Below are positions 47,536 through 61,597 of a stretch of DNA of 64,000 nt, piece by piece (the first letter of the stretch is position 1; each line of letters opens with the position of its first letter). The DNA lies in NCBI GenBank assembly GCA_030264375.1, contig JASCQW010000098.1, positions 78,917,065-78,981,064 of the forward strand. Reading direction: 5' to 3'. The position numbers and the translations under genes are program-made. Under the pieces are notes generated by a model, which worked only from the letters and a program-made list of their open reading frames with translations, was not told the origin of the DNA and did no database searches. This DNA comes from Carcharhinus longimanus. Its lineage: Eukaryota.

Positions 47536-48212
47536 TTCGTTGCTATTGCGGGGATGCCTAACATACAGGGGGCCATTGACTGCACACGTTGCCCTCAAGG
47601 CCCTGCTACAGAATTTGTGGAAATTCAGCAACGGAAAGGGATTCAGCTCCGAGTGTTCAACTCGTGTGCGATCACAACATGAACATTATGCATGTCTGCA
47701 CAAGACATCCAGGTAGTGTGCATGACAGCTTCATTGTCAGGAGCTCAGACATCCCGGAGACATCTGAGTGGGAGCCCAGGCTGCGGGGGTGGTTCCTCGG
47801 TGATATGGGTTACCCACTTCGGACATGGCGGATGACGCCTGCGCAGAAGCCTGTGACTGAGCTGGAGATTCACTATAATGAGGCTCCTGTAGCCACCCAG
47901 GCAATAGTGGAGAAGTACATTGGGCTGCTCAAAATGTCATTCCGATGCCTAGACCAGTTTGGTGAGGCCCTTCAATACAACCCAGTGATCTCTTCCCACT
48001 TAGTGGTCATGTAATGTGCCTTGCACAATCTGGCTCTGTACAGAGGTGACATATTGGAGGACATGGAGGCTGACCAGGCAGGCGTTGCTGGGGAGGATGA
48101 CCAGCAGAAGGAGGAAGAACACGCTGAGTAACACCAAACAGACGCTGGAGGGCTGGCCTTCCAAATGAAACATGCAAGGGAGGGCCTGATCACCAGGCAG
48201 TTCACTCCGTAG
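47536..48212 (+). mobile_element. PIF/Harbinger (HARBI1-like) DDE transposase relic
   Basis: FVAIAGMPNIQGAIDCT...VQLVCDH...HPGSVHDSFI...WFLGDMGYPL...YNEA...VEKYIGLLKMSFRCLD...CALHNLA...AREGLITRQF, with frameshifts and stops; 5' part missing. Confidence 0.9.
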
Positions 48213-58229: not shown

Positions 58230-58523
58230 TAACAATCTTGACCAATGACTTAGATAAGGAGAGAGAGTAACGAATACAAAGTTAGGTGAGAAGGTAAGCT
58301 TTGGAGAGAACAGAAAGGATGCAAAGTGATATAGACAAGTTAAGTGAGTGGGCAATGAGATGGCCGATTAAACATAATGCAAGGAAGTGTGAAGATTCAC
58401 TTTGGTTAAGAATAAAAAAGCAGAACATTTTTTAAAAGGTGTGAAACTTGTAAATGTTGATGTTCAGAGAGATTTGGTTACAAGGAATACAGAAAGTTAG
58501 CATGCAGGATACAGCAAGCAATT
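58230..58523 (+). mobile_element. CR1 RT fragment
   Basis: aatgacttagat...gatatagacaagttaagtgagtgggca...aagtgtga...tacagcaagcaatt. Confidence 0.75.
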
Positions 58524-58959
58524 TCAAATGAAAATTAGGACAACTGGTCCAGTTAAACTTGTCCCAGTTGGCTGGGCACACTTGTTTCTAGTTGGGGCTA
58601 GTTAACTCTGCTGCAGCTGCCCCTAGCCTACTTTGGGACCAGTTAGACTGGCTAAAACTCCTGGTCAGCTGGTTCCATTTGAGACTAGCTAAATATTCAA
58701 AACTTGTGAAAGGGAAAATCTAAAACAAATTCACCTGCTACATTCACATAAGTACCACTAATAAGTGTAAAAAAAAGGTGTCTGTTTGCGCTGAGGGGTC
58801 AGTGAATCATAAAACACTCTTGATTGGGCTGTGCTGCAAATTTCAAATTTTGTGATGCAGAAAAGCACAAACCATGTGAAACAAAAACTAAATAAATGGC
58901 GGAGATCAAAAAAAAACAATGTAGAATGTTAAATTACAGCTATCATAGCACCAAACTTA

Positions 58960-61332
58960 AACAGTATTTACATCACTGAATCGGGATACTTCCTTTGATT
59001 TCAATCTTCTGTTTTTCTCCGAGATGCTAAGACTCTTGATTTCCCTGTAATGAAAGAAATAAGCACAGAAGCCAGAAAACAGTTAATCATGTAAAGTGCA
59101 CAAACCAAAAACAGTCATAATGCAGAAATGTTAAACTGCAGCTGTTCATCAAAACACAGAACTTAAGCATTAGGCACAAGATGGGTTGCTGGATTTCTTT
59201 TTGAGGTCCTGGATTTTCTCAGAGATTTAATTGTTCATTTTAGCAAGCTCTTTCTCAAAACCCTGTTTACTCAGACTCTGGTGTTAGAGGTGGCGGGTGA
59301 AACATGTTGTAAATAAGAGAAAAAGTTTAAGCTTGAAATTAAAAGTTCGGGTGACAAGAAGCCTCCAAGTCAACCTCCTGTCGTATGAAATTCAATCTTC
59401 TATGCTGCCTGCAACAAAATAGCCTTTGAAAAGCTCACTATTTATCCTTCTTACAGTTCATCCCCTTGAAAGAGGTTGCTGCCTGTGATAAAACAGCTTG
59501 GAGGCACCCCCATTTGTTAACTTACTGCTTCTTAGCAGTTCATCCCCATGGCAACCCTAGGTCATCTGAGCCAGGCTTGGGACCTAAGGGTGTCATAATT
59601 AGGAAAACAATTAACTCCTTCTCAATACTCCGACAAAGAGGACATTGCATCTCACAAAGATAAAACACGCCTTTCATATGGTTACCTTTGATAGCATTTA
59701 ACTCCTCTGGTGAGAGTGAAGGCTTTGCAGTGCCTCCAGCTTTGACAAATTGTGGACACACCCTCCCACCGACAGACCTGTTCCTCAGTTGTTTGGGTCC
59801 CTAGATGACAATAGTCAAGCTCTGGATGAATAATGAATTTGACTTGGGCTGGGTGCTTTATTCCACTCTCTCTCTGTTGTCTCAATACCACCTGACAGTT
59901 GTACCTGTAAGTACAATCAGCAACATATTTAGCATCCTACATATAAAATTGGAATATATTGCAGAACGAGGTTAATGGCAGATGTTATGTCAGGTTATTC
60001 AATAGTTCAATCACACTCAATGAATAGCAATGGAGACAAATCTGATGCTGCACCTACTGTCATAATAATACATCTTTGCTGAAAACAACAATCAACATCA
60101 TGTATTTTTTAAATTAATCGTAAGAATCATGATCTTGCCATCAATTGCAGAGTACAACAACTTACTGGCCTCATTGTCCTCCATCTTGGGGGACTTGTTG
60201 ACTCTGCCTGAGTTGTGTTGGGGTGCAGGCATGTTCGACACTGCTCACGTTATGATGAAGGTGCATCACCTTGCCTGAGATTGTCCAACCTTCTTGCTGC
60301 AATGTGATGAAAACTAATTGGCATCATTCATATATCAGACTTGGGAAGCCATTCACGCAACTCCAATTTAATCTATTGTCTTCTTCCGATCAAAAGGAGC
60401 TGTATTTATCATCGAAAGAGGCGTACCACGTGTGTTAAGGTAACAGTTGTATCTCACCTATTTTTGACAGTTCAACTTCAAGCTGTAGCTTGAAATTCAT
60501 AGCCTCCAGATTCTCCACTTTCTTTCCCAGATTCGCTACCTTTCGGGGGGGCTGCCCTCTCTTCTTTGAGCTTCTTGGTTATTTTCTTCCCTTGGGACGG
60601 GGAAGGTAGATGGTCAGAGAGGCAAGGCTCAGAAGTTTTCATCTTCAGCTGCTTCTTCTTGGATTTATTATCCTNNNNNNNNNNNNNNNNNNNNNNNNNN
60701 NNNNNNNNNNNNNNNNNNNNNNNNNNNNNNNNNNNNNNNNNNNNNNNNNNNNNNNNNNNNNNNNNNNNNNNNNNTTTGACAACAAGGTGGACCGACACCT
60801 GTGGATTAAAAGAGACAAAACATTAACATGTAATATTACATTTCCAGTGTCATCCCGAGGCTCTGACCCTTTTTAATACCGTCTACTATAACCCTCCATC
60901 CCTGTTTTGCTCATGTGTCTAAGTAAACCTTAAACAAGTCCAATGTGCCTGCCTCCACCACCTTACTTGGTAGCGCATTCCATACCCCCACGGCACTCTG
61001 CGTGTATTAGGATGTTCCTCCAGATAATGGAATTCTGAACTGGATGCACAACTGGAATGCCTGTTTGACCAATTAATGAGCTGGCAAGTCATTATGTACA
61101 ACACCATATGGGGACAAGACTTCCTCTGTTGGCTATTTTTGGTGAAACTGTAAACATATTCCCAAGGCAATTAAAGTCTGCAAGGCATCTGTGTTGGTTG
61201 CCTCAGCACTGGAAGAGGCTATGAAAATAGTTCCACTCATTTGCGCACTCTCAACCAAATATCCAAAGCACCAATATAAAGCCAAAAGTAATAGAATAAA
61301 TATACTTACTGATCAACAGCCATGTTTATCAT
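58960..61332 (-). pseudogene. Decayed multi-exon coiled-coil + BEN-domain (BEND5/BEND6-like) gene
   Basis: Exon 59904-59686 (ttacag|...G|gtaacc) reads VQLSGGIETTEREWNKA/.NSLFIQSLTIVI*GPKQLRNRSVGGRVCPQFVKAGGTAKPSLSPEELNAIK with one frameshift and a TGG>TAG change. An upstream exon ending at 60458 (G|gtgaga) gives a coiled coil KVANLGKKVENLEAMNFKLQLEVELSKI. Further small exon-like units at 60296-60166, 60078 and 59044. Confidence 0.7.
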
Positions 61333-61597
61333 CTCAATAAAACACGCTAGACAAACAAAGCCCAGTGCGTACCAAAACCAAATCTTAAAAATAACAGGCA
61401 CATTGACATGAATCAACATGGTGGGGTGGCACTTCATGCTTTATGATGGCCCTTATAAGCTGTATTTTATCCCTCTAGCATTCAATTACTTTCTATATGG
61501 CAAATATATTTTGGTGAATGGTATTTAGACAAACACTTAACTCACTTGCTTCTGGAGTTATTGCATCAGTTTATTAAGATAATTTCAACTGTTCACG

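Follow-up and report, generated by a model that had tools for sequence, protein, structure and literature searches.

The window, by which we mean the whole stretch of 64,000 nucleotides of Carcharhinus longimanus DNA analysed here, carries at positions 58523 to 60674 (minus strand) a relic that is best explained as the broken 3' half of an old transposase-less element, whose BEND5-like gene was probably an accessory gene of a CACTA/EnSpm transposon of the TRC type. The limits of the whole detectable relic are given by profile matches (E34, GB and RE3, in family order) and by dispersed copies. It comprises the 3' half of the element gene, the 3' UTR and the right subterminal array. On its 5' side it meets an assembly gap written as 100 Ns (60675 to 60774), which may hide some left part of the element; a profile search of the window and of the next 40 kb detected neither the start-codon exon of the family nor its left end. 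An ATG exon that the preliminary description had suggested at 61323 to 61310 is unsupported, positions 61030 to 61590 matching no fetched locus. At the other extremity a high-copy LINE-like fragment (58300 to 58522, plus strand) adjoins the relic and truncates its right end. The right array is kept, the last few dozen bases were lost to the LINE at 58522, and the terminal inverted repeat, cut by the LINE, is missing from this copy. Further away in the window, an open minus-strand frame of 477 codons (10010 to 8580) is probably a large exon of the host gene. It looks like the large exon of a DLC-family gene, possibly STARD13; Pfam and Atlas searches gave no match that would bear out this name.

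Four exons of the gene are recognisable with the intact relative P0001 as guide: coiled coil, linker, first BEN and last. P0001 is the named full-length protein XP_078063628 of Mustelus (342 amino acids), reached via an open-exon copy on contig C182 (L032). The window gene is damaged by frameshifts and by four or more stops, and one of its donors and one of its acceptors are lost. The coiled-coil exon (60458 to 60674, minus strand like the other exons, the 3' UTR and the right array) gives tblastn matches to P0001, P0171 and P0172; it is frameshifted, its 5' end is hidden by the N gap, and its intact donor at 60458 is common to other copies in the alignment. The linker exon (60134 to 60296) ends in ...DGK, has an internal stop and has lost the family donor at 60133. 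The donor proposed earlier at 60166 is a GT found only in the window and absent from the 13 other aligned rows, the linker running past it to 60134, and the acceptor proposed at 60078 falls inside an intron of the gene model of the intact relative. The first BEN exon (59686 to 59904) is full length in the window copy, unlike in most copies, and has one frameshift near 59845 and a TAG at 59801 to 59803. In these exons the other features of the preliminary description stand: its peptides, the frameshift, the TAG, the donors at 60458 and 59686 and the acceptors at 60296 and 59904 are present and common to other copies.

The last intron contains a short interspersed repeat (59515 to 59631, strand not assigned). 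The last coding exon (59170 to 59306), which holds the second half of BEN and has 56% identity over 36 amino acids to P0001, has two internal stops and has lost its acceptor. This is the true last exon, which the preliminary description had missed; the end that it saw is the unit starting at the 59044 acceptor (58940 to 59044). That unit and its own acceptor are real and recur in two other copies, C81 and L163, but the unit is a diverged repeat of the 3' half of the last exon plus UTR, about 200 bp downstream of it (score 72 versus a shuffle maximum of 44). This old internal repeat is possibly an alternative last exon. The 3' UTR region of the element gene (58687 to 59169) is common to other copies. 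The right subterminal array (58523 to 58686) is made of CCAGTT, AACTGG and CCAGCT words, of which there are 5 in 168 bp versus 5 in 8400 bp of control.

Taken alone, the BEN half-exon of the window stays below the Pfam threshold. BEN (PF10523) is its sole match, with 14 bits (E 0.058) for a cut-off of 23.2, and the C182 exon reaches 21.4 bits; both fall short because an intron splits the BEN domain. The BEN assignment made in the preliminary description is nevertheless borne out by a comparison of the window half-exon to a profile of 21 BEND5-like sequences (hhalign probability 98.5, E 1.7e-15) and by the intact relative P0001, which scores 28.9 bits, above the cut-off, and has a predicted BEN fold. 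Foldseek with the AlphaFold model of P0001 (mean pLDDT 73) brings first the BEN structures of Bsg25A, Insv, NACC1, BEND6 and BANP, with E values of 8e-5 to 5e-4 for Bsg25A and Insv; a PDB sequence search with P0001 gave no match. The predicted coiled coil upstream of BEN is a helix at residues 135 to 184 of the model (pLDDT about 90 to 97), to which the coiled-coil exon of the window aligns. Introns, whose loss would mark a processed retrocopy, are present and common to the copies. Sequence comparison thus confirms the earlier view of a spliced BEND5-like BEN gene that is not a retrocopy.

Besides the self-match, a DNA search of the genome with the relic gave at least 46 matches on 19 contigs with 64 to 88% identity, a lower bound from 40 of 42 candidates scored. 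The matches span introns and UTR; 18 of the 46 consist only of the short intronic repeat. The element is about 4 to 5 kb long and has one spliced gene that codes for an N-terminal domain, the coiled coil and BEN. The unit starts with a left end of about 500 bp rich in CCAGTT/AACTGG repeats, followed by a spacer and by a promoter-like block that contains CCAAT-like words. Then come the start exon, the other exons, the 3' UTR and, on the right, a repeat array of about 180 bp. The succession of left end, promoter-like block, start exon, coiled coil, BEN and right end is found in 28 of 29 stretches, these being fetched loci with at least two element parts, and the profiles were built partly from those same copies. 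A reading of the upstream block as the tail of a minus-strand transposase was ruled out, the block being in fact, on the plus strand, the start exon of the gene itself. In copy L172 both ends lie 5.1 kb apart, SINE and LINE insertions included, so that there is no room for a transposase. Pfam searches of the largest gap of L172 and of the sequence upstream of the window copy found no family, and no extra interior was found in common among ten full-BEN or divergent copies. A search of the genome for Transposase_21 gave 0 matches, as did its control search, so that partners which are decayed or lie in gaps may exist.

The ends of the element are inverted. A 12-nt core is matched at 10 to 12 of its positions in 10 of 12 left ends and, reversed, at 9 to 11 positions in six of seven right ends. 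The termini can be written CCCAG..GAAAAATCAGTT. An exact CCC start is seen in three of the 12 left ends and in one of the seven right ends, two of them reading CCCAG; the others are decayed, and two further left ends are one letter off CCC. The subterminal repeats occur in direct and inverted orientation, their words reaching 11 to 30 per kb in the ends versus 0.6 per kb in the control for a motif chosen after the ends had been seen. No target-site duplication (TSD) is readable among the copies, none of which has both termini intact. These features of the sequence support the assignment of the relic to a dispersed, non-autonomous cut-and-paste DNA element that has no transposase, has inverted termini and carries repeats next to them. 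The cargo of a DNA transposon that the preliminary description had suspected is in this sense recovered, with the copy number and the link to terminal inverted repeats (TIRs) that it proposed to look for; no linked transposase was found.

A first TIR pattern search gave 8 matches, none with element sequence. A second one gave 35 matches versus 0 in the control, and most of its 30 loci are a look-alike inside a CR1-type LINE. Among its other loci, one is a left end already known, and a few have similar ends but different interiors; the 10 to 20 kb flanking these few contained no partner end or element parts. Loci L209, L219, L225 and L233 have, at 1501, ends nearly identical to the element TIR with different interiors, and are possibly sister non-autonomous families. 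In L233 an inverted partner lies about 140 bp away, flanked on either side by TT; this one case is ambiguous.

Animal CACTA (TRC) elements are described as having TIRs that start with CCC, like CCCAGTCAAC in Aedes and CCCAGCCAAC... in Hydra, and 2-bp TSDs (PMC1636069, PMC4298943). The shark element resembles members of this group (SmTRC1 of Schistosoma, the TRCs of Aedes and Tribolium, Spongebob/EnSpm-4N1_HM of Hydra) by the CCC start of those few TIRs that keep one, CCCAG in two of ours, and by the general plan of an element of about 4.5 to 9 kb with a spliced internal gene and many non-autonomous copies. It is unlike them in that it has no Transposase_21 frame, that its only gene is BEND5-like and that a 2-bp TSD is not readable. 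The CA..TG ends reported in most cases for CMCT elements (PMC12730594) also count against the CACTA reading.

A decayed piece of a PIF/Harbinger transposase (72 bits to Pfam DDE_Tnp_4) lies at 47580 to 48011 (plus strand) of the window; no link between it and the BEN element was found. The gene could be a native accessory gene of a DNA transposon superfamily other than CACTA/EnSpm, for instance PIF/Harbinger-related or undescribed. Neither transposase nor TSD was obtained, and the Harbinger fragment is 10.5 kb away from the relic, which would both suit this explanation. We hold it to be distinctly improbable: the CCC(AG) termini and the subterminal arrays fit TRC-type CACTA, and the Harbinger fragment is situated beyond the right end of the element, with nothing similar common to the copies.

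The copies have a median identity of 80% to the column majority, in exons and introns alike. Differences pooled by codon position over 20 copies are 0.214/0.197/0.234, and those of the window copy from the family majority (20/67, 11/66 and 14/67) have no third-position excess. Decay of the copies is neutral, equal across the three codon positions and introns, and the window copy compared to the majority gives no sign of selection on the element's own protein. The DNA tree of the copies, with 21 of 23 rows after stretches of fewer than 300 aligned bases were dropped, is star-like with end branches of about 0.2.

Most copies also have a deletion in common. Fourteen of the 17 copies spanning both BEN exons lack one and the same stretch, made up of the second half of the first of these exons and of the intron; the half-exon is present in 9 of 46 stretches scanned. 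The deletion needs one change on the DNA tree (support 61/60), and 0 of 500 shuffles were as low. Between the 3' UTR and the right end, a MITE of about 300 bp, with the same start and at the same site, is found in six of the ten copies with a full 3' end; its ends presumably resemble those of hAT elements. The carriers (L053, L172, L173, L162, L164 and L174) belong to the deleted subfamily. The window copy, whose BEN exon is full and which has no MITE, is of the minority type. The deletion and the MITE common to most copies indicate that the unit moved as DNA without its own protein. Since a master unable to encode BEN made most copies, enzymes acting in trans were required.

The relic stretch is present in contigs of 22 runs from 11 studies. 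Orthologous contigs from four runs cover it with about 94 to 98% identity, and two of them cross the LINE junction. Their BEN exons keep the TAG in three cases and the frameshift in two, and a frame-breaking change is present in all four; no intact syntenic orthologue, proposed earlier as a check in other sharks, was found. The two most distant orthologues differ by 7/5/3 and 5/5/5 over the three codon positions, with no third-position excess; the two nearest lean to third positions (0/2/4 and 0/2/3) on very few changes. The alignments indicate that the insertion predates the split of the compared lineages and that no protein selection acts on the relic.

Host BEND5 is located elsewhere, at G000:C61:118.71-118.74 Mb (L042, L142, L143 and L200). 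It is intact, single-copy and conserved, its first BEN exon being identical to the catshark Scyliorhinus protein XP_038665702 (P0052), and no element ends are found within 30 kb of it. The genome has in addition a host BEN gene with four BEN in one 761-amino-acid frame (G000:C27:24845817-24847454, L037-L040) and a host single BEN exon (C130:47774378, L041). Vertebrate BEND5 is like the element gene in having a coiled coil (PMC9233729) followed by BEN, and three introns of the C-terminal half have position and phase in common between host BEND5 and the element gene. It differs by its BEN region, 35 to 42% identical, and by being single-copy and conserved.

The orthologous sequence in other organisms (92 to 98% identity) and the three matching intron positions would agree with a lost single-copy host gene nested at the locus, or with a segmental duplicate of BEND5. 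Such an origin is at odds with many dispersed copies that have sharp common ends, with BEN exons that are broken in all four orthologues compared, and with host BEND5, which is intact on C61 and whose DNA matches the family only in one weak 85-bp exon stretch. This explanation is largely refuted and highly improbable. At the protein level, the window and C182 peptides have 40 to 59% identity to sea-cucumber proteins versus 35 to 42% to host BEND5. In the protein tree (54 rows; proteins below 250 amino acids excluded, except P0002 and P0004) they group with shark BEND5-like proteins inside the echinoderm set, away from BEND5, although a topology that unites the shark family and vertebrate BEND5 in one clade is not rejected by the AU test (p 0.083). 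The family, multi-copy and placed with echinoderm proteins in the best tree, does not appear to be an orthologue of BEND5.

An intact sister gene with open exons lies elsewhere in the genome, at G000:C182:3066500-3067350 (L032, L043-L044). In the BEN region its exons are 97% identical to Mustelus XP_078063628 and 86 to 88% identical to the Cetorhinus XP_078390906/7 and Carcharodon XP_041036331-4 proteins. From the family majority C182 diverges by 26% in its exons and 38% in its introns, the latter still being alignable to the family (62% to the majority), and forms the longest branch of the DNA tree, outside the other copies with midpoint rooting. No element ends were detected in its 70 kb of flanks, of which 28 kb are N. 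Together with C182, the shark BEND5-like RefSeq genes code for the nearest proteins, with about 60% identity to the window peptide and the same exon borders; unlike the relic, they are intact and conserved. This makes C182 a candidate shark-specific domesticated gene.

Because the C182 sister is intact and conserved, host-gene capture stays as the main rival. A non-coding TIR element of the Pack-CACTA type would then have taken the whole C182 host gene with its introns and spread it as passive cargo, whose protein would at no time have served the element. Such a capture would be in line with the C182 conservation among sharks, with its alignable introns and outer branch and with the lack of visible selection on the element branches, and capture of host fragments by CACTA elements is on record (PMC8195511). 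We consider it unlikely, although not negligibly so, on three grounds. The element gene is complete, with promoter-like block, all exons and UTR, and is not made of chimeric fragments. Near-identical dispersed BEND5-like genes are found in insects, ticks, echinoderms and teleosts. Lastly, close full-length relatives of P0001 are found only in sharks (four of five matches), nested among echinoderm proteins, which is the pattern of a young domestication.

BEND5-like proteins at least 90% alike are encoded on four different contigs of the damselfly Ischnura, and near-identical ones on several contigs of the tick Ixodes and at several loci in the teleosts Megalobrama, Brachyhypopomus and Pagothenia. 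Such several near-identical loci are as mobile genes would behave. In the gene models P0018 (Hyalomma) and P0019 a BEND5-like BEN is joined to sequence that is SAMD3-like or unrelated (Atlas lead 0.83); as a lead only, the two models hint at neighbouring element genes in invertebrates. No BEN-transposase fusion was predicted among the longer proteins. A metagenome scan gave three short contigs with single BEN exons and no context, and the viral contigs scanned had no BEN relatives.

We favour the hypothesis of an accessory gene of a TRC-type CACTA transposon. Subterminal repeats bound by TnpA are a described trait of CACTA elements, those of plants needing TnpA (PMC8195511), and BEN domains bind as dimers to short words that are often palindromic (PMC4281564). 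The BEND5-like protein, composed of a small N-terminal domain, the coiled coil and BEN, would have dimerised and bound the CCAGTT/AACTGG subterminal arrays. In this position it could have helped the transposase of an autonomous partner to pair the ends, by analogy to TnpA of maize Spm. The likeness to the plant En/Spm TnpA-TnpD system lies in the arrays with two orientations and in a multi-exon DNA-binding gene whose product could bind them. However, plant TnpA is described as a Transposase_24 protein that shares its transcription unit with TnpD (PMC8195511, PMC1636069), whereas the shark candidate is a BEN protein. Loss of the transposase gene, and at a later stage of half the BEN exon, would have left derivatives that were moved in trans in one ancient burst. 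The window copy would have been a pseudogene ever since, and one sister copy, C182, would have been retained by the host.

A broader proposal, to which we give slightly less than even credence, is that BEND5-type genes are TnpA-equivalent accessory genes of animal CACTA elements that vertebrates might have tamed twice, as BEND5 and as galeomorph C182, with the fossil family as bridge. A BEN-CACTA link was not found in the literature searched, but the surveys of Abhiman 2008 and Pan 2023 and Repbase entries may already state it. A survey of metazoan transcription factors derived from transposons (PMC10027918) mentions none of BEN, CACTA, EnSpm and CMC. What this analysis adds is a fossil family in a vertebrate, the introns that it has in common with BEND5, and a candidate case of domestication in sharks.

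The locus as such is a dead pseudogene. Its family ties a human chromatin regulator family, that of BEND5, to a DNA transposon through the same introns, the same domain order and a second, shark-specific intact gene whose introns, too, can still be aligned to those of the mobile copies. Should the accessory-gene reading be true, the counterpart of TnpA that has long been missing for animal CACTA elements would have a name, and BEN would join the DNA-binding domains acquired by hosts from transposons.
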